This document shows, in pieces, positions 1,757-7,674 of a DNA stretch of 7,674 nucleotides (the stretch's first letter is position 1; each line of letters starts with the position of its first letter). The position numbers were made by a program, and so were the translations under genes. Under the pieces are notes generated by a model. That model saw only the letters and a list, made by a program, of their open reading frames with translations. It was not told the DNA's origin and ran no database searches. The stretch lies in the IMG/VR virus record IMGVR_UViG_2703719355_000017. The stretch is one strand, 5' to 3'. This stretch comes from a virus. Taxonomy: Duplodnaviria > Heunggongvirae > Uroviricota > Caudoviricetes.

Positions 1757-1805
1757 GGTTTAGTTTTTACTTGACTTAAGTTTAATGTTTATTAAACTAA
1801 AAATA
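1757..1805 (+). promoter_or_regulatory. Second operator/promoter copy (OL/PL-like) downstream of the toxin gene
   Basis: GGTTTAGTTTTT (1757-1768) parallels GGTTTAGTGTTTTT at 735-748. -35 TTGACT (1771-1776), 16-nt spacer, -10 TAAACT (1793-1798). GTTTAATGTTTATTAAAC (1780-1797) matches GTTTAGTGTTTAATAAAC (755-772) at 16 of 18 positions. Confidence 0.45.
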
Positions 1806-1979
1806 CCAACCCACCCCGCCCCACAGAACGCCGGGCAATACTTCGAGTTACCAGGCAGTGGTCAGGGGGGTAAGTAGCCAGCCCGAGGCGTAAGAACATG
1901 ACGGCAGGGTTCAACTTTAATAACTATGCAGCAGGTTTTTGTTCCGCTACCCCGGCGTTAAGGGGAAACAGAGGATTTC

Positions 1980-2318
1980 TCAGTGGGCGAAGTCAAACAT
2001 CAGAATGGAAGGCATCCCAGGATCGGCAAAGAAGCAGCAATGGCGCTTTATATTGACATCAGCGCCATTACCGGACAGGTAAGAGTTATCAGAGCGGTAA
2101 CTAAGCGGTATGCGCCTTTGCTTCAGAAAGGCTCTGGTGAGTGCACCGAAGATACTGTCAACGATTTCGTCATCGAACTGCGAGGACTCATCTTCAGTTA
2201 CAAGGTGACCACAATTTTTGCAGATGGCTCCCGCGAAACTGTCAGAGCCCTGCGGCTTAAAGGATGTGTCAAAGACTTCGCCACCACATTCTGGGCAAGA
2301 AAACTTAATTGTATTCAT
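1980..2318 (-). CDS. Small zinc-ribbon protein, 112 aa from the ATG (function unknown)
   Basis: ATG at 2318..2316; the track's first codon is TTG at 2324. GAGG on the minus strand about 9 nt upstream. N-terminus carries CPECGG-x21-CKNCG (C-x2-C...C-x2-C) followed by an acidic stretch. Preferred over the co-extensive plus-strand ORF, which has more rare Arg codons (AGA/AGG/CGA). The C-terminal half is less protein-like, so true length is uncertain. Confidence 0.5.
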   Translation of the reverse strand: MNTIKFSCPECGGEVFDTSFKPQGSDSFAGAICKNCGHLVTEDESSQFDDEIVDSIFGALTRAFLKQRRIPLSYRSDNSYLSGNGADVNIKRHCCFFADPGMPSILMFDFAH

Positions 2319-2410
2319 AACCAATTTCCTCTCGAGTAACAGCCCCCTCAGAGGATACCACCTCGCCTGACGTGGTTAAAAGCAGGCAACGCTAACCACA
2401 AGGAGCTGAC

Positions 2411-2629
2411 ATGCAGAAACCAGAACCCACTATCATCGCACCAGGCTATACCGATGATGAACTTTATGAGTGGATGCGCCAGAAAATTAATGCAGCGCAG
2501 GATCTGAAATGGGCCAATGAAGCCAGGGCTAAGCAGGCTGAAAATCTGTCCGCTCTGGAGCAGGATATCACCAGACTGGAAAAAGCAGCGGCATTAAGCA
2601 TTGCCAGAATGATTACATACCCACGTTAA
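2411..2629 (+). CDS. Hypothetical protein, 72 aa, predicted helical/coiled-coil
   Basis: Strong SD AGGAG (2401-2405) 5 nt before ATG 2411. Product MQKPEPTIIAPGYTDDELYEWMRQKINAAQDLKWANEARAKQAENLSALEQDITRLEKAAALSIARMITYPR. No family recognised by eye. Confidence 0.7.
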   Translation: MQKPEPTIIAPGYTDDELYEWMRQKINAAQDLKWANEARAKQAENLSALEQDITRLEKAAALSIARMITYPR

Positions 2630-2651
2630 TAGCTAACCAACGAGGCTAATA

Positions 2652-3026
2652 ATGGAATTTAAAGATTTACCAATGCAATTCCAGGAAATGGCAGCGAATA
2701 TAGTTCGTTCCCAACTGGCGACTCTTGACCTGAGTACCGTAGAAAAAGAAACCATCGATACTATATCCAGTAACGTGCGTCGTGCCTTTATCGGTCTGTA
2801 CGAAGAGAAGCAGCTCTCTGATAACCAGGATTTACATGAAAAATACTTCCTGGATCTAATGGACATCATTAATAAGGGATTTGGCTTGTTAATGAAACAG
2901 AAAGGGATTCGAATGAACCCCCTTGAAAATTACTTCGCAACAAGAAGCATTAATTCCTGTGATTTAAAGCATCCCGCCACAGACGGGAGTGTTACAGCTA
3001 GCCATGAGATTTCGATTAATCATTAA
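2652..3026 (+). CDS. Hypothetical protein, 124 aa
   Basis: SD GAGG (2642-2645) 6 nt before ATG 2652. Starts 22 nt after the previous gene, suggesting an operon. Lower GC than flanking genes by eye. No family recognised. Confidence 0.7.
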   Translation: MEFKDLPMQFQEMAANIVRSQLATLDLSTVEKETIDTISSNVRRAFIGLYEEKQLSDNQDLHEKYFLDLMDIINKGFGLLMKQKGIRMNPLENYFATRSINSCDLKHPATDGSVTASHEISINH

Positions 3027-3114
3027 AATCAATAGCTATTTCAATAAGTGATGCCATCTCGTTGCGTTTTGTTGAATTCATCTTACGTAATACTTCATGT
3101 TGATTAGCACCTTT

Positions 3115-3155
3115 GGCGGCATCAGTTTAATTGCTGGCTGATGTCCGCCCTTTTT
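3115..3155 (+). terminator. Putative rho-independent terminator
   Basis: GC-rich stem GGCGGCATCAG (3115-3125) pairs with CTGATGTCCGCC (3138-3149) with one bulge; 12-nt loop; followed by TTTTT (3151-3155). Lies about 90 nt after the 124-aa gene. Confidence 0.5.
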
Positions 3156-3159
3156 AAAG

Positions 3160-3178
3160 TGAATTTTGTGATGCGGTG
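3160..3178. repeat. Left arm of a 19-bp perfect inverted repeat
   Basis: TGAATTTTGTGATGCGGTG (3160-3178) is the exact reverse complement of 3303-3321. Arms are separated by 124 bp. Confidence 0.9.
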
Positions 3179-3302
3179 AATGCGGCTCAGCGCACGCGGA
3201 ACAGTTAAAAAGGCCAGTTGACTTCCGTATTGGTTCTTATGGGTGGGTTCTCTGTATCCGGCGTTAATTGTTAACTGGTTAACGTCACCTGGAGGCACCA
3301 GG

Positions 3303-3321
3303 CACCGCATCACAAAATTCA
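3303..3321. repeat. Right arm of a 19-bp perfect inverted repeat
   Basis: CACCGCATCACAAAATTCA (3303-3321), reverse complement of 3160-3178. Confidence 0.9.
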
Positions 3322-3338
3322 TTGTTGAGGACGCGATA

Positions 3339-3527
3339 ATGGAAACGTTATTACCAAACGTTAATACGTCTGAAGGTTGCTTTGAAATTGGTGTCAAAAT
3401 CAGTAACCCTGTATTTACTGAAGATGCCATTAATAAGAGAAAACACGAACGGGAGCTATTAAATCAAATATGCATTGTTTCAATGCTGGCCCGTTTACGT
3501 CTGATGCAAAAAGGATACTGGCAATGA
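3339..3527 (+). CDS. Hypothetical small protein, 62 aa
   Basis: ATG 3339 with GAGGA (3327-3331) 7 nt upstream. The longer track ORF from 3243 would start inside the inverted-repeat region and is rejected. Stop TGA 3525-3527 overlaps the next start. Confidence 0.55.
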   Translation: METLLPNVNTSEGCFEIGVKISNPVFTEDAINKRKHERELLNQICIVSMLARLRLMQKGYWQ

Positions 3528-3715
3528 ATACATCATTTGCACTCGTTCTGACGGTTTTTCTTAATACGGGCGAGCCGCTTGACCTTATTGTTGACATACG
3601 TGACTCAATGGAAGAATGCATGGCTGCCGCAGCGGAACAGAAAATTCCCGGTAACTGTTATCCGGTTGATAAAGTTATTCGCATGGATAATAACGAAGTC
3701 CCGGCAGGGCTTTAA
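3524..3715 (+). CDS. Hypothetical small protein, 63 aa, with a short N-terminal hydrophobic segment
   Basis: ATG 3524 overlaps the preceding stop (ATGA), suggesting translational coupling. Product MNTSFALVLTVFLNTGEPLDL... The track ORF start at 3470 is upstream of the coupled ATG. Confidence 0.55.
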   Translation: MNTSFALVLTVFLNTGEPLDLIVDIRDSMEECMAAAAEQKIPGNCYPVDKVIRMDNNEVPAGL

Positions 3716-3805: not shown

Positions 3806-6256
3806 ATGAGCGCTGATAAAGAAGAAATTGCACTATATTACGAAGCCAAAAATGACAAAGTCAGAAAACGCCTTGGGATTAAAGGCGGTTTTTACTGGCG
3901 CACAGCAAAAAAATTATCGATTGCAATATCACGCGGTGTTGTCGCAATGGACGATGCCGGATTTGACGAAGAGGATTTTAAAAAACCTGTTCGCGTCCAT
4001 TTACCCGTTGTGAATGACCTTCCTCCGGAAGGCGTGTTTGATACCGAATTCTGCAACCGATACGAAAAAGGCGGGGAAGATGGTATCACAATGGTACTTA
4101 TCGCGCCCTCTGTTCAGGATAAACCAGCCAGCACTGACAATACCAACGTCAACGGTGAAGACATGACTGAGATTGAGGAGAATATGCTCCTGCCAGTTTC
4201 AGGTCAGATTCTGCCTGTTCGATGGCTGGCGCAACACAACAGCGAAAAACCGATCACGCACGTTTCGCAGGACGAACTGCGCGCATTACATAACGCACAG
4301 GATGAAAAACTTCCCGCCGTTACCGCGCTGGCCATCTCAAATAAAGCAGCGCAACTCGAACCACTGGAAATTCGCGATCTCCACAAACTGGTACGCGACA
4401 CTGACAAAGTTTTCCCTAATCCTGGTAATTCAGACCTGGGACTGATGACCGCTTTTTTCGAAGCATACCTGGGCGCTGACTACACCGATCGCGGTCTGCT
4501 TACAAAAGAGTGGATGAAAGGAAATCGTGTTTCACGCATCACCCGCACGGCTTCCGGTGCTAATGCCGGTGGAGGGAACAAAACCGATCGCAATCCGAAT
4601 TTAGTACACACCTTTGATACGCTGGATGTGGAGATTGCAGCGGCCACACTTCCGATGGATTTTAATATTTATGAAATTCCGGGCAGCGTTTATCGTCGCG
4701 CAAAAGAAGTCGTCCGGAAGAAAGAAAGTCCGTTCAAAGAATGGTCCGCAGCACTTCGCGCAATCCCGGGTATCCTGGATTATTCCCGCGCCGCTATTTT
4801 TGCACTTATCCGGAGCGCACACCCTGAGTTTTATCATTACCCGGGACGCCTTCAGGGGTATATCAACGCCTATTTAACGGAGACTGATCACGAGAACCCT
4901 ACCGAGGAAACTCTCGCTGCTGCACGACATACACCGGAAAAAGATATCCTGGAAGAAGTTAACCGCGAACTGGCTGCTGAACACGAAACAGAAGAAGAAA
5001 AAAATAATGAGGAAAAATCACAACCGTCTGACGCAATGGCAGATGAACAGGCAACGGCTGAAGAAATGGAGCCGGATACAACTGAACATCACCAGGACAC
5101 GCAATCGCTGGATACTCAGGAACAGGTAGATCCAGTTAAACAGGTAAAAGTTACCGCTGACGAAGTAAACAAAATTATGCAGGCAGCCAATATCAGCCAG
5201 CCTGACGCCGATAAGTTACTTGCTGTATCACGTGGTGAATTTGTTGAGGGGATTAGCGCCCCTAATGATCCGAAATGGGTCAAGGGGATCCAGACTCGCG
5301 ATTCTGTGAACCAGAACCAGCATGAATCGGAACGGAACTACCAAAAAGCGGAACAAAACAGCCCAAATGCGTTACAAAACGAGCCAGAAACGAAACAACC
5401 TGAACCAGTAGTGCAACAGGAACCGGAAAAGATCTGCACCGCCTGCGGTCAGAGCGGTGGCGGCAACTGCCCTGATTGTGGTGCGGTGATGGGTGACGCA
5501 ACATACCAGGAAATATTCGATGGAGAGAATCAGCCTGAAGTTCAGGAAAATGATCCGGAGGAAATGGAAGGCACTGCGCATCAGCACAAGGAGAACACTG
5601 GCGGCAATCAGCATCATGCCAGCGATAGTGAAACTGGCGAGGCGTCAGATCCCTTAATTAAGGCGAACGGTCATCATAATCTCACATCCACCAGCAGAGC
5701 GGGGATTCATCTGATGATCGACCTTGAAACCATGGGAAAAAATCCCGATGCCCCGATTATCTCAATAGGTGCAATATTTTTCGATCCGCAAACCGGAGAT
5801 ATGGGACCGGAATTTAGTAAGACTATCGATCTGGAAACTGCTGGCGGAGTCATTGATCGGGACACCATTAAATGGTGGCTTAAACAATCACGCGAAGCGC
5901 AATCTGCCATTATGGCCGATGAAATCCCGTTAGATGATGCACTGTTACAATTGCGGGAATTTATCGACGAAAACTCCGGTGAATTTTTTGTTCATGTCTG
6001 GGGAAATGGAGCCAACTTCGACAACGTAATTTTACGCCGTTCATATGAACGACAGGGCATCCCCTGCCCGTGGCGCTACTGCAACGATCGCGATGTACGC
6101 ACAATTGTTGAACTGGGAAATTCCATTGGCTTTGATGTCAGAATGACTATTCCATTCGAAGGTGTACCTCACAATGCACTCGATGATGCACGTCACCAGG
6201 CAAAACAAGTTTCAGCTATCTGGCAAAAACTGATCCCGAGTCAGGCTGATTTTTAA
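3806..6256 (+). CDS. Large prophage exonuclease-like protein, 816 aa: N-terminal region of unknown function, acidic low-complexity linker, C4 zinc-ribbon motif, C-terminal DEDDh (DnaQ/RNase T-like) 3'-5' exonuclease domain
   Basis: SD GAGG (3795-3798) 7 nt before ATG 3806. DEDDh motifs read directly: Exo I MIDLETMG (D639, E641; nt 5720-5728), Exo II HVWGNGANFDN (D739; nt 6020-6022), Exo III HNALDD (H789, D794; nt 6170-6187). C-x2-C-x7-C-x2-C at residues 544-558 (nt 5435-5479). Acidic E/D/Q/T-rich region at about residues 360-630. Confidence 0.85.
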   Translation: MSADKEEIALYYEAKNDKVRKRLGIKGGFYWRTAKKLSIAISRGVVAMDDAGFDEEDFKKPVRVHLPVVNDLPPEGVFDTEFCNRYEKGGEDGITMVLIAPSVQDKPASTDNTNVNGEDMTEIEENMLLPVSGQILPVRWLAQHNSEKPITHVSQDELRALHNAQDEKLPAVTALAISNKAAQLEPLEIRDLHKLVRDTDKVFPNPGNSDLGLMTAFFEAYLGADYTDRGLLTKEWMKGNRVSRITRTASGANAGGGNKTDRNPNLVHTFDTLDVEIAAATLPMDFNIYEIPGSVYRRAKEVVRKKESPFKEWSAALRAIPGILDYSRAAIFALIRSAHPEFYHYPGRLQGYINAYLTETDHENPTEETLAAARHTPEKDILEEVNRELAAEHETEEEKNNEEKSQPSDAMADEQATAEEMEPDTTEHHQDTQSLDTQEQVDPVKQVKVTADEVNKIMQAANISQPDADKLLAVSRGEFVEGISAPNDPKWVKGIQTRDSVNQNQHESERNYQKAEQNSPNALQNEPETKQPEPVVQQEPEKICTACGQSGGGNCPDCGAVMGDATYQEIFDGENQPEVQENDPEEMEGTAHQHKENTGGNQHHASDSETGEASDPLIKANGHHNLTSTSRAGIHLMIDLETMGKNPDAPIISIGAIFFDPQTGDMGPEFSKTIDLETAGGVIDRDTIKWWLKQSREAQSAIMADEIPLDDALLQLREFIDENSGEFFVHVWGNGANFDNVILRRSYERQGIPCPWRYCNDRDVRTIVELGNSIGFDVRMTIPFEGVPHNALDDARHQAKQVSAIWQKLIPSQADF

Positions 6257-6299: not shown

Positions 6300-6317
6300 C
6301 GTTCCGGAGTGATAACC

Positions 6318-6587
6318 ATGAGCGAACAGTACCTGATAACGCTCGATGAGTGGAAACCCAAACGGTTCAGTCTCCCAATAACAAACACTACCCTGGTGAA
6401 ATACGGAAAACTTGGATACATCGTACCAAGACCACAAAAAATTCGTGGACGTTGGCTGATAGATCGCCGGGCAGTATTTGTTGGACCTGGTGAAACGGGA
6501 ATTGCGCCGGAAATTCATACTGGCGATGATGATGCACTGAAGGAGATTTTAACTCATGTCACCGAGGCCACGAAAAAACAGCACTGA
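6318..6587 (+). CDS. xis: Excisionase (lambda Xis-like), 89 aa
   Basis: ATG 6318 with GGAG 8 nt upstream; the track start at 6309 is a GTG in the same frame. Segment YLITLDEWKPKRFSLPITNTTLVKYGKLGYIVPRPQKIRGRWLIDRRAVFV resembles lambda Xis as recalled. 3' end overlaps the int start by 32 nt, as in lambda. Confidence 0.75.
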   Translation: MSEQYLITLDEWKPKRFSLPITNTTLVKYGKLGYIVPRPQKIRGRWLIDRRAVFVGPGETGIAPEIHTGDDDALKEILTHVTEATKKQH

Positions 6588-7674
6588 CGTAGCCGGTCTT
6601 TACGAAAAGTTTGATCGCAGAACTGGCAGAGTTTACTACCAGTATAAAAACCCTGTGACTGGAAAATTTCACGGACTCGGAACAGACAAAGGCAAAGCTG
6701 AAAGAATCGCTTCCACAGCCAATCAGCGAATAGCTGCAGCAGAAGCCGAATATTTCATGCGCAAAATTGATGAAAGCCCGTCAGCAACAAAACGTCGGGG
6801 TATCAGATTAAAGGCATGGGTTGATCGATATCTGAAAATACAGGACGCGCGGCTGAAAAATGGAGATATTGCAGCTACAACCCACAAAGAAAAAGCGCGA
6901 ATGGCTGCATACCTGGTTTCCCGTCTGGGAAACCACCCATTGAAAGAACTGGAAGTAAGAGACTTTGCATTAATACTGGATGAGTGGCTGGATAAAGACA
7001 TGGTCAGCACAGCGAGAGTAAATCGTGGATTATGGGTTGATATTTATAAAGAAGCACAGCATGCAGGGGAAGTTCCTCCTGGATGGAATCCTCCGGAGGC
7101 TACCCGTAAACCGATCCCTAAAGTAACCAGAGCCAGGCTCACCATGGAAGACTGGCAAAAAATTTACAATGCAACGCCTGAAAAACACTTTATCCGTAAC
7201 GCAATGCTTCTTGCGATTGTTACTGGTCAGCGCCGTGATGACATTTGCCACATGCGTTTTTCAGATGTGTGGAACGAACACTTGCATATCACCCAGGGAA
7301 AAACCGGAATGCGTCTGGCGTTACCGCTTACACTACGCTGTGATGCCATTGGGATAACGTTAAAAGAAGTTATTGATGGGTGCCGAGACAGAATATTAAG
7401 TCCATATCTAATCCATAGTCGGCACCAGAAACAACCGAAGCCGATGAGTAAAGACAACCTGAGCGACTACTTTGCCAAAGCACGGGATCTGGCTGGGATA
7501 ATTCCACCAGCAGGAAAAACTCCGCCAACATTTCATGAACAACGCTCTCTATCAGAACGGCTGTACCGTGCACAGGGTATCGATACAAAAACATTACTAG
7601 GACATAAAGTCCAGGCAACCACCGATCGCTATAACGATACTCGAGGTCAGGAATGGGTTAAGTTGGTTATTTGA
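6556..7674 (+). CDS. int: Tyrosine site-specific integrase, lambda Int family, 372 aa
   Basis: ATG 6556 with SD AGGAG (6541-6545). Basic N-terminal arm-type domain (YYQYKNPVTGKFHGLGTDKGKAERIA). Catalytic-domain motifs VTGQRRDD, QGKTG, PPTFHEQRSLSERLY, LLGHK, and TTDRY with the presumed catalytic Tyr359 (nt 7630-7632). Strongly resembles lambda Int as recalled. Stop TGA at 7672-7674 is the window end. Confidence 0.93.
   Translation: MSPRPRKNSTDVAGLYEKFDRRTGRVYYQYKNPVTGKFHGLGTDKGKAERIASTANQRIAAAEAEYFMRKIDESPSATKRRGIRLKAWVDRYLKIQDARLKNGDIAATTHKEKARMAAYLVSRLGNHPLKELEVRDFALILDEWLDKDMVSTARVNRGLWVDIYKEAQHAGEVPPGWNPPEATRKPIPKVTRARLTMEDWQKIYNATPEKHFIRNAMLLAIVTGQRRDDICHMRFSDVWNEHLHITQGKTGMRLALPLTLRCDAIGITLKEVIDGCRDRILSPYLIHSRHQKQPKPMSKDNLSDYFAKARDLAGIIPPAGKTPPTFHEQRSLSERLYRAQGIDTKTLLGHKVQATTDRYNDTRGQEWVKLVI

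Follow-up and report, generated by a model that had tools for sequence, protein, structure and literature searches.

The dicBF operon is the source of two classic inhibitors of cell division and of a small RNA that is relevant to virulence in pathogenic E. coli. Melson and Kendall are said to have described, in 2019, four copies of dicF in EHEC. In its published form the operon reads ydfABC-dicF-dicB-ydfD, and its expression involves termination as well as processing by RNase E and RNase III (PMC5069750, PMC9438474). The DicF hairpin of K-12 ends a short transcript and is also read through into dicB (PMC5069750, PMC9438474), the spacer between dicF and dicB houses the region processed by RNase III, and K-12 DicF is known to bind Hfq and to be processed by RNase E and RNase III (PMC5069750). 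In K-12 and in phage Tritos, ydfC is followed by about 340 nt that hold no plus-strand open reading frame, and then by dicF and dicB.

Here we describe a stretch of viral DNA of 7,674 nt (the window), in which the segment 2325-3155 had been singled out in an initial annotation as a self-contained two-gene cassette of unknown function. We conclude, with a probability of roughly three in four, that this segment forms the first, protein-coding half of an early-left operon of the dicBF type, in a lambdoid prophage of E. coli. On this reading the unknown cassette finds a definite place within the dicBF operon and is an ordinary addition to a known type of operon; as neither protein has a known function, the practical gain is modest.

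Organisation of the locus and its control region

Along the plus strand, the gene of a DicA/PaaR2-like repressor and a PaaA2-ParE toxin-antitoxin pair come first, followed by a promoter-like site at about 1771-1798, a leader and a zinc-ribbon gene that lies on the minus strand, and then by ydfC, a gene of 124 codons (orf124), a DicF-like hairpin, a spacer, dicB, a ydfD-like gene, an exonuclease gene, xis and int. The locus shares with the dicBF operon of K-12 Qin the gene ydfC (94% identity), the position of the dicF-like element, a near-identical dicF-dicB spacer, the succession of dicB and a DUF1482 ydfD-like gene, and a DicA-like repressor upstream. It differs from Qin in the PaaA2-ParE pair, which is inserted after the repressor, in the minus-strand zinc-ribbon gene, which takes the place of the promoter-proximal ydfA and ydfB, and in having orf124 plus 77 nt where ydfC and dicF of Qin are separated by an untranslated leader of 340 nt. 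With lambda-type early-left accessory genes (kil, cIII, ea) and with phage morons it has in common the position between the immunity region and exo-xis-int, and the presence of small variable genes, one of them AT-rich, beside division inhibitors; a comparison of the two proteins with the Pfam families of the lambda early-left region gave no sequence similarity. That the segment belongs to a lambdoid early-left region, where genes of the kil and exclusion type reside, had been proposed initially and is borne out by what comes next downstream, a DicF-like sRNA and then DicB, an inhibitor of division.

The dicF-dicB spacer (3156-3338, plus strand) is near-identical to that of K-12 and Tritos in alignment, apart from 14 inserted nucleotides and one short patch of divergence. 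It is followed by dicB (3339-3527, plus strand), which encodes a cell-division inhibitor of 62 aa and matches Pfam PF05358 over its full length (1.3e-38), and by the ydfD-like DUF1482 gene (3524-3715, plus strand; PF07358, 2.4e-20), which is annotated in relatives and, judging from these, would overlap dicB by 4 nt. A sub-threshold match to STnc100 was also seen within the spacer, at 3162-3316.

Upstream, a promoter scan pointed to a PdicB/pL-like candidate for the early-left promoter (1757-1800, plus strand), which consists of TTGACT at 1771-1776, a gap of 16 nt and TAAACT at 1793-1798, and which is overlapped by operator-like repeats. The match to consensus is 9/12, and the repeats D1, I1 and I3 (12/12 exact) at 1757-1800 are common to the intergenic region between cro and the repressor gene (738-810). 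Based on the consensus match together with the repeats, the promoter of the operon is probably this operator-covered site at about 1771-1798. The leader behind it (1808-1972, plus strand) aligns with the 5' leader of Tritos ydfA and the homology stops at about 1973, which implies that ydfA and ydfB have been replaced. What follows is a CxxC zinc-ribbon gene of the ECs_2282 family (1980-2324, minus strand; NCBIfam NF047912, 7.9e-15), annotated beside ydfC in relatives too, which points away from ydfC and is antisense to the putative transcript of the operon. It counts against the proposed promoter and operon that this gene lies between the candidate promoter and ydfC, as a transcript of the operon would have to cross it in antisense.

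With its neighbour at 1980-2324 on the minus strand, ydfC is preceded by a divergent intergenic region of 86 bp (2325-2410), just as the initial annotation had it. The spacer has a GC content of 54.7%, and a consensus scan of its plus strand, a method that may miss weak or atypical promoters, found no sigma-70-like match; a weak promoter may lie close to ydfC. The description of the cassette as self-contained is not upheld, as no such match precedes it and the terminator assigned to it belongs to a DicF-like sRNA within a longer operon.

The hairpin upstream of dicB

The structure that had been read as the cassette's own terminator is a strong one: behind a hairpin at 3115-3149 come a C (3150) and five U (3151-3155), and the hairpin folds with -21 kcal/mol (z = -3.35), a stability that none of 200 shuffles attains. 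Its position upstream of dicB is syntenic with dicF of K-12 and Tritos, and Rfam RF00039 matches 3104-3150 over the full model with 35.1 bits (E = 4e-6). This is under the gathering score of 48 and far from the 75-77 bits of canonical dicF copies; a search of the window against Rfam at the gathering threshold gives no match, and DicF is seen only under an E-value threshold. From synteny and the model match, the terminator is identified as the hairpin of a divergent DicF-like sRNA allele (3104-3155, plus strand); what the initial annotation had right was its strength, not its ownership by the cassette.

The allele shares with RF00039 the GGCGG...CCGCC hairpin with its U-tract, the full-length match and the position before dicB. 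It differs in the loop, which reads UAAUUGCU instead of UUUUACUCCGUGA, and consequently the core directed against the Shine-Dalgarno sequence of ftsZ is missing. K-12 DicF is distinct from it in both the 5' tail and the loop, and the K-12 sRNA alone folds with -15.9 kcal/mol compared to -21 kcal/mol for the allele described here, which has a longer stem that is almost perfectly paired.

By analogy with the K-12 operon, ydfC and orf124 would be silent in the lysogen and would be transcribed from the repressor-controlled promoter upon derepression. The hairpin would then stop a share of the transcripts, so that the 3' UTR of orf124 would be the precursor of a DicF-like sRNA, and dicB and the genes further on would be supplied by read-through. 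Compared to K-12, read-through into dicB could be low because of the longer, nearly perfect stem.

The strongest competitor to this part of the reading holds that the hairpin has lost its function as an sRNA and is a terminator or attenuator only, which merely limits transcription into dicB. We consider this rather less probable than a functional sRNA. The Rfam score under threshold, the longer stem and the loss of the long K-12-type leader upstream of dicF speak for it, as does the loop of only 8 nt, which is without ACUCCG. In a crude and merely suggestive RNAduplex test against the ribosome-binding site of ftsZ, the allele pairs with -12.1 kcal/mol, about the mean of its shuffles (-12.6). 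However, in the same crude test K-12 DicF itself, with -17.1 kcal/mol, reaches just the 15th percentile of shuffles. The allele is moreover kept in 59 viral contigs, in four loop variants only and with a common CAUGUUGAUU motif in the 5' tail, which suggests selection beyond the stem, and a hairpin with a U-tract is the usual Hfq-binding module of sRNAs derived from 3' UTRs (PMC9438474). Among species-representative genomes the DicF-type pattern was found on two E. coli contigs only, which gives no cross-species covariation. The locus carries a minority allele of DicF that sits under the threshold of Rfam and does not contain the anti-ftsZ loop sequence. Should this allele act on other targets, tallies of 'dicF copies' in pathogenic strains would lump together sRNAs that differ in function.

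Two small genes that come and go separately

The two genes are both on the plus strand, at 2411-2629 (72 aa) and 2652-3026 (124 aa), with a gap of 22 nt between them, and each has a sequence resembling a Shine-Dalgarno site (AAGGAG at 2400-2405 and GAGG at 2642-2645), in agreement with the initial annotation of two tightly spaced genes with strong ribosome-binding sites. Neither protein had been recognised there. The 72-aa protein can be assigned by its sequence to YdfC, a named protein of uncharacterised function: 68 of its 72 residues are identical to YdfC of E. coli K-12 (b1573), it matches phrog_1744 (7.8e-38, residues 1-68 of 68), and the matching gene of relatives carries the PGAP name 'protein YdfC'. 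Of 5426 complete E. coli genomes, 4662 contain a match to some part of a query that runs from ydfC to dicB, and ydfC belongs to the core of the dicBF operon. The AF2 model of the protein is one long helix (residues 15-69, pLDDT 88.8), and a single amphipathic helix of 55 residues probably forms a coiled coil.

The product of orf124 matches phrog_6937 end to end (1.1e-80, residues 1-124 of 124), and its first 52-75 residues also match four further PHROGs (1363, 2151, 9419 and 33007), whose C-termini past about residue 55 are unrelated to its own. What these proteins share is a conserved helical N-module of about 52 aa (MEFKDLP...NVRxAFxxLY), joined to many unrelated C-termini. A profile search with the orf124 alignment against 1.84 billion cluster representatives returned 57 clusters only, all of them prophage-type small proteins that carry the N-module, and a Pfam domain was found in 0 of 10 longer N-module proteins scanned. 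The family ranges over Escherichia and a few other Enterobacteriaceae, and the exact orf124 sequence is present on 100 E. coli contigs. To our knowledge, no function has been described for any member of these five PHROGs.

The homology and structure searches that had been suggested for both proteins yielded family matches, to YdfC/phrog_1744 and to phrog_6937, but did not point to a function: searches by sequence in Pfam, NCBIfam, PADLOC and PDB gave nothing for either protein, and the PHROGs that they match are of unknown function. The AF2 model of orf124 is poor (pLDDT 57.6), and Foldseek of this model against the PDB found nothing below E = 2. Both proteins lack a transmembrane segment and have a pI of about 5.3, and orf124 may tentatively be pictured as a soluble, mildly acidic helical protein. 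The median dN/dS is 0.19 for ydfC (22 distinct alleles) and 0.25 for orf124 (28 distinct alleles), which implies purifying selection on both; this value and the conservation of orf124 rule out that it is a spurious open reading frame.

The segment had further been described as lower in GC than its surroundings, which is correct for a part of it. The GC content of the whole segment is 43.4%, that of the window 46.5%, and 17% of windows of the same size do not exceed the value of the segment. Between the two genes, AT-richness is limited to orf124, which with 40.3% is within the lowest 4% of windows, whereas ydfC with 47.5% is average; the 77-nt spacer 3' of orf124 has 32.5%, and the low-GC tract runs on through dicB (37.0%) to about 4000. 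Besides being AT-richer, orf124 is absent from K-12 Qin and phage Tritos, and in the closest full-length relative the same backbone surrounds a different allele, of 135 aa, in the orf124 slot. The allele is swapped in L150; in L009 and L035 orf124 is joined, as here, to the DicF variant by 77 nt. The mosaic breakpoints relative to the closest relatives are at about 2673 and 3109, on either side of orf124 and not of the ydfC-orf124 pair. In all this orf124 behaves like an accessory insert. It is a swappable prophage gene from a small enterobacterial family with a conserved N-module and swappable C-termini, and the long stretch that K-12 leaves untranslated ahead of dicF, behind ydfC, is a variable gene slot in other prophages.

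Do the two genes nevertheless form a functional pair? Of 105 non-identical loci anchored on DicF, 17 have both ydfC and an N-module gene, 37 only the former and 37 only the latter (odds ratio 0.17, p = 3e-5, for loci that are phylogenetically non-independent). Since they are more often separate than together, ydfC and orf124 are not a unit. An obligate complex, in which the coiled coil of YdfC would bind the N-module and the pair would be one unit inside the operon, is therefore unlikely: one gene stands alone in 74 of the 105 loci, K-12 and Tritos carry ydfC without orf124, and in loci of the L055 type orf124 comes directly after ydfA instead. What lends this idea some appeal is the spacer of adjacent pairs, which is mostly exactly 22 nt (2 or 15 nt in a few cases), and a natural fusion protein of 149 aa that joins a YdfC-like N-terminus (39% over 33 residues) to an N-module (43% over 51 residues). 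The fusion is known from 5 sequences on 8 contigs and is located at the equivalent early-left position of another, distant lambdoid phage.

Lower still in our estimation is the autonomous cassette, or moron, of the initial annotation, in which ydfC and orf124 would have been acquired horizontally as a single unit. This unit would have a promoter (in 2325-2410) and a terminator (at 3115-3155) of its own, and the repressed prophage would express it to the benefit of the lysogen, for example by exclusion or anti-defence. The divergent spacer, the strong hairpin, the AT-rich and variably present orf124, and a mosaic joint at the start codon of ydfC, precisely where many database matches begin, are all in keeping with it. 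However, deviant composition and variable presence are seen for orf124 and not for ydfC, which is average in GC and widespread; the terminator, for all its hairpin and U-tract, is the conserved DicF element at its conserved position and not specific to the cassette; the breakpoints bracket orf124 and not the pair; and the two genes are negatively associated. As the consensus scan of the upstream spacer yielded no sigma-70-like site on the plus strand, and thus no promoter of its own for the pair, the definition of a moron probably does not extend to ydfC and orf124 together; what stands of the proposal is the insert-like character of orf124. A toxin-antitoxin or defence pair, which two small adjoining genes in a prophage accessory region close to a PaaA2-ParE pair might bring to mind, is highly improbable and was rejected because of the separability of the genes, with ydfC alone in K-12, and because of the complete absence of PADLOC, Pfam and NCBIfam families for both proteins.

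A possible role for the variable slot

Within the dicBF-type operon, we speculate that YdfC and orf124 might bind host or phage proteins as part of the host-takeover or exclusion programme of DicF and DicB; this is a tentative suggestion, in which docking would fall to the conserved N-module and specificity to the variable C-terminus. Even more tentatively, the whole MEFKDLP N-module family could consist of modular adaptors of early operons, and the region between the promoter and dicB could be a slot for host takeover or exclusion in which a diversifying protein is combined with a retargeted sRNA. The two-helix N-terminal module would dock on a partner that stays constant, perhaps YdfC itself or a helix resembling it, as found in the fusion protein, and the C-termini swapped by recombination would retarget the protein to other proteins of the host or of rival phages. 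At the same time the 3' UTR would yield a DicF allele with a seed retargeted from ftsZ, such that the slot would be no passive leader.

A conserved convergent partner gene 3' of orf124 was considered and rejected, as the minus-strand genes of three relatives (L001, L007 and L090) are mutually unrelated. The window itself holds, on the minus strand at 3016-3091, the remnant of a 73-aa gene, namely its 3' end of about 25 codons; the gene is intact in L001 at 4217-4438, and the alignment of the window with L001, on which this assignment is based, extends to 3091.

Genomic context and operon identity

The window covers the arm of a lambdoid E. coli prophage that runs from the immunity region to the integrase, with the + strand as the early-left direction. 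A YdaT-like gene (1-426) and a YdaS/Cro-like HTH gene (423-725) on the - strand are followed on the + strand by a DicA/PaaR2-like regulator (760-1194), the PaaA2 antitoxin (1161-1406; PF21217) and the ParE toxin (ending at 1686; PF05016). Beyond a zinc-ribbon gene of the ECs_2282 family (1980-2324, - strand) lie, all on the + strand, the 72-aa ydfC (2411-2629), the 124-aa orf124 (2652-3026), dicB (3339-3527; PF05358, 1.3e-38), a ydfD-like gene (DUF1482; 3524-3715), an 816-aa exonuclease (3806-6256), the excisionase (6309-6587) and the integrase (6556-7674). The regulator, PaaA2 and ParE form a three-gene toxin-antitoxin module (760-1686) and, because it sits directly at the immunity region, the regulator may have a second role as the prophage repressor.

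The initial annotation had described 2325-3155 as a self-contained, lower-GC cassette of two unrecognisable genes with its own terminator. What was seen in the sequence is real: the two genes are only 22 nt apart, with Shine-Dalgarno sites (AAGGAG 5 nt before the ydfC ATG, GAGG 6 nt before that of orf124), the upstream zinc-ribbon neighbour is divergent, and a terminator-like hairpin (3115-3149, followed by U5 at 3151-3155) has a folding energy of -21 kcal/mol and beats 200 of 200 shuffles. The lower GC content holds for the span as a whole (43.4% versus 46.5% for the window) and for orf124 (40.3%) but not for ydfC, which is average at 47.5%; only orf124 and the spacer 3' of it are AT-rich, and the low-GC tract goes on through dicB (37.0%). 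The reading as a self-contained cassette is not supported, since the hairpin is a DicF-like sRNA element at the dicF position of a dicBF-type operon. In E. coli K-12 this operon runs ydfA-ydfB-ydfC, a long untranslated region that includes dicF, and then dicB-ydfD (PMC5069750; PMC9438474). From the identities of the parts and this published order it follows that the pair is the front of a dicBF-type operon, YdfC plus a gene in a variable slot, and no self-contained unit.

Unlike K-12, the window has neither ydfA nor ydfB. It keeps, at 1808-1972, the leader found 5' of ydfA in phage Tritos; homology to Tritos breaks at ~1973, where the minus-strand zinc-ribbon module starts, and the order of minus-strand zinc-ribbon gene and ydfC is repeated in many genomes. 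The 86-bp spacer that precedes ydfC showed no sigma-70-like site on its + strand. A promoter-like site, TTGACT-16-TAAACT (1771-1798), lies ~85 nt past the ParE stop codon and is overlapped, at 1757-1800, by operator-like repeats of the GTTTAGTGTTT type; these also fill the cro/repressor intergenic region (738-810), with a 12/12 exact inverted match between 775-786 and 1768-1779. We infer that this putative site corresponds to PdicB and would serve as the early-left promoter under repressor control; its transcript would have to cross the zinc-ribbon gene antisense. That gene, on the opposite strand between the putative promoter and ydfC, extends to the recombination joint at ~1973 and encodes 114 aa, versus 43-66 aa annotated in relatives.

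A minority DicF allele

The most interesting by-product of this analysis is the DicF allele itself. The full Rfam RF00039 model aligns to 3104-3150 with 35.1 bits (E = 4e-6), a match obtained at an E-value threshold and under the gathering score of 48, whereas canonical DicF copies score 75-77 bits. In the alignment with the K-12 cryptic prophage Qin and Tritos the hairpin falls exactly at the dicF position, and the dicF-dicB spacer after it is almost identical; judged by sequence and position, what had been called a terminator forms the 3' hairpin of a DicF-like sRNA. The K-12 DicF has a 5' end produced by RNase E and a 3' end that arises either through Rho-independent termination or when RNase III cuts a read-through transcript (PMC5069750; PMC9438474).

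Compared with K-12 DicF, the allele has a longer, nearly perfect stem and a different 5' tail, and its 8-nt loop reads UAAUUGCU instead of UUUUACUCCGUGA. It also lacks ACUCCG, by which the K-12 sRNA base-pairs with the ftsZ Shine-Dalgarno region, and in a crude test its duplex with the ftsZ ribosome-binding site (-12.1 kcal/mol) equals the shuffle mean, versus -17.1 kcal/mol for K-12 DicF. The hairpin, in four loop variants, is present in 59 IMG/VR contigs, the copies sharing a CAUGUUGAUU motif in the 5' tail; the canonical form occurs in at least 120 contigs, and of 5426 complete E. coli genomes only 18 have a match to the window allele. It is a conserved minority form and may act on targets other than those of canonical DicF. 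The dicF-dicB spacer, nearly K-12-identical save for a 14-nt insertion, matches Rfam STnc100 (RF02076) at 3162-3316, but below threshold (33.7 bits versus a gathering score of 47).

YdfC and the slot gene

Both ORFs are real genes, with median dN/dS values of 0.19 for ydfC (22 distinct alleles) and 0.25 for orf124 (28 distinct alleles). The claim that neither protein is recognisable fails for the first, which by its sequence is YdfC: it is identical to K-12 b1573 at 68 of 72 positions, it matches phrog_1744, and the NCBI pipeline calls the matching gene ydfC in relatives. The claim stands as regards function, as neither protein has a match in Pfam, NCBIfam, PADLOC or PDB sequences, and the literature up to 2026 gives no known function for YdfC. 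Both are predicted to be soluble and mildly acidic, without transmembrane segments. YdfC is modelled by AF2 as one helix (residues 15-69, pLDDT 88.8), with hydrophobic residues in 11 of 15 a/d positions of its heptad register; the model of orf124 is of low confidence (pLDDT 57.6), comprises three helices and a disordered tail, and gave no structural neighbour.

The product of orf124 matches phrog_6937 end to end (1.1e-80), and 100 E. coli contigs carry the identical sequence, labelled "hypothetical protein". The family is small, with just 57 clusters at 50% identity in a search of 1.84 billion representatives. Nearly all members begin with a conserved N-module (MEFKDLP...NVRxAFxxLY), after which the C-termini diverge, for total lengths of 31-208 aa; none of the ten longer members scanned has a Pfam domain.

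K-12 and Tritos have no + strand ORF in the 340 nt that separate ydfC from dicF, a stretch that orf124 and 77 nt replace in the window. At 3016-3091 on the - strand are the last ~25 codons, ending in MNSTKRNEMASLIEIAIDFND and a stop codon that overlaps the orf124 3' end, of a 73-aa gene that is intact in a relative (L001, 4217-4438). Because the 77 nt hold this remnant, the window lineage has, as far as the alignments indicate, lost in one deletion both the minus-strand gene and the leader of K-12 type that precedes dicF. The junction of orf124, the 77 nt and the DicF variant recurs in two viral contigs (L009 and L035) and therefore marks a lineage, no assembly accident.

Are the two genes a unit?

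Most of the evidence speaks against it. Of 80 viral loci chosen via the N-module, about half have ydfC directly upstream, usually 22 nt off, and ~34 have no ydfC within 600 nt upstream; one locus (L055) has the order ydfA-like gene, orf124, 317 nt, canonical DicF and dicB. A second set of 105 non-identical loci, chosen only by the DicF hairpin and covering 2.5 kb upstream, avoids the selection bias of the first: 17 of the 105 carry both genes, 37 only ydfC, another 37 only the N-module gene, and 14 neither of them (odds ratio 0.17, Fisher p = 3e-5, for loci that are phylogenetically non-independent). Mosaic breakpoints against the closest relatives, at ~2673 and ~3109, bracket orf124 and the DicF 5' tail rather than the pair. 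In the closest full-length relative (NZ_AP029605.1 2647168-2655890; 93% identity, integrated beside potC) the slot in the same backbone holds a 135-aa allele, with an N-module 49% identical and an unrelated C-terminus, and an intact 77-aa minus-strand gene. The exact mosaic of the window is absent from all complete E. coli genomes of the collection.

Contrary to this, a natural 149-aa protein (5 sequences on 8 contigs, e.g. L090 6001-6450 and L089 1037-1486) fuses a YdfC-like N-terminus to the N-module, a Rosetta-stone sign which hints that the two can work together. The fusion belongs to a different lambdoid phage, where it takes up the equivalent place in the early-left operon (Cro | cI-S24 ... 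fusion ... Rv2179c-like exonuclease), and no DicF was found near it. We speculate, with a probability of only about one in five, that YdfC and orf124 would be protein-binding accessory factors produced upon derepression, serving a host-takeover or exclusion programme alongside DicF and DicB, with the N-module as the docking part and the variable C-terminus as the specificity part.

As a separate observation, the 816-aa exonuclease of the window has an N-terminal region of the RecE-type Exonuc_VIII (PF06630) and, instead of the RecE nuclease domain, a C-terminal Rv2179c-like 3'-5' exonuclease domain (PF16473).
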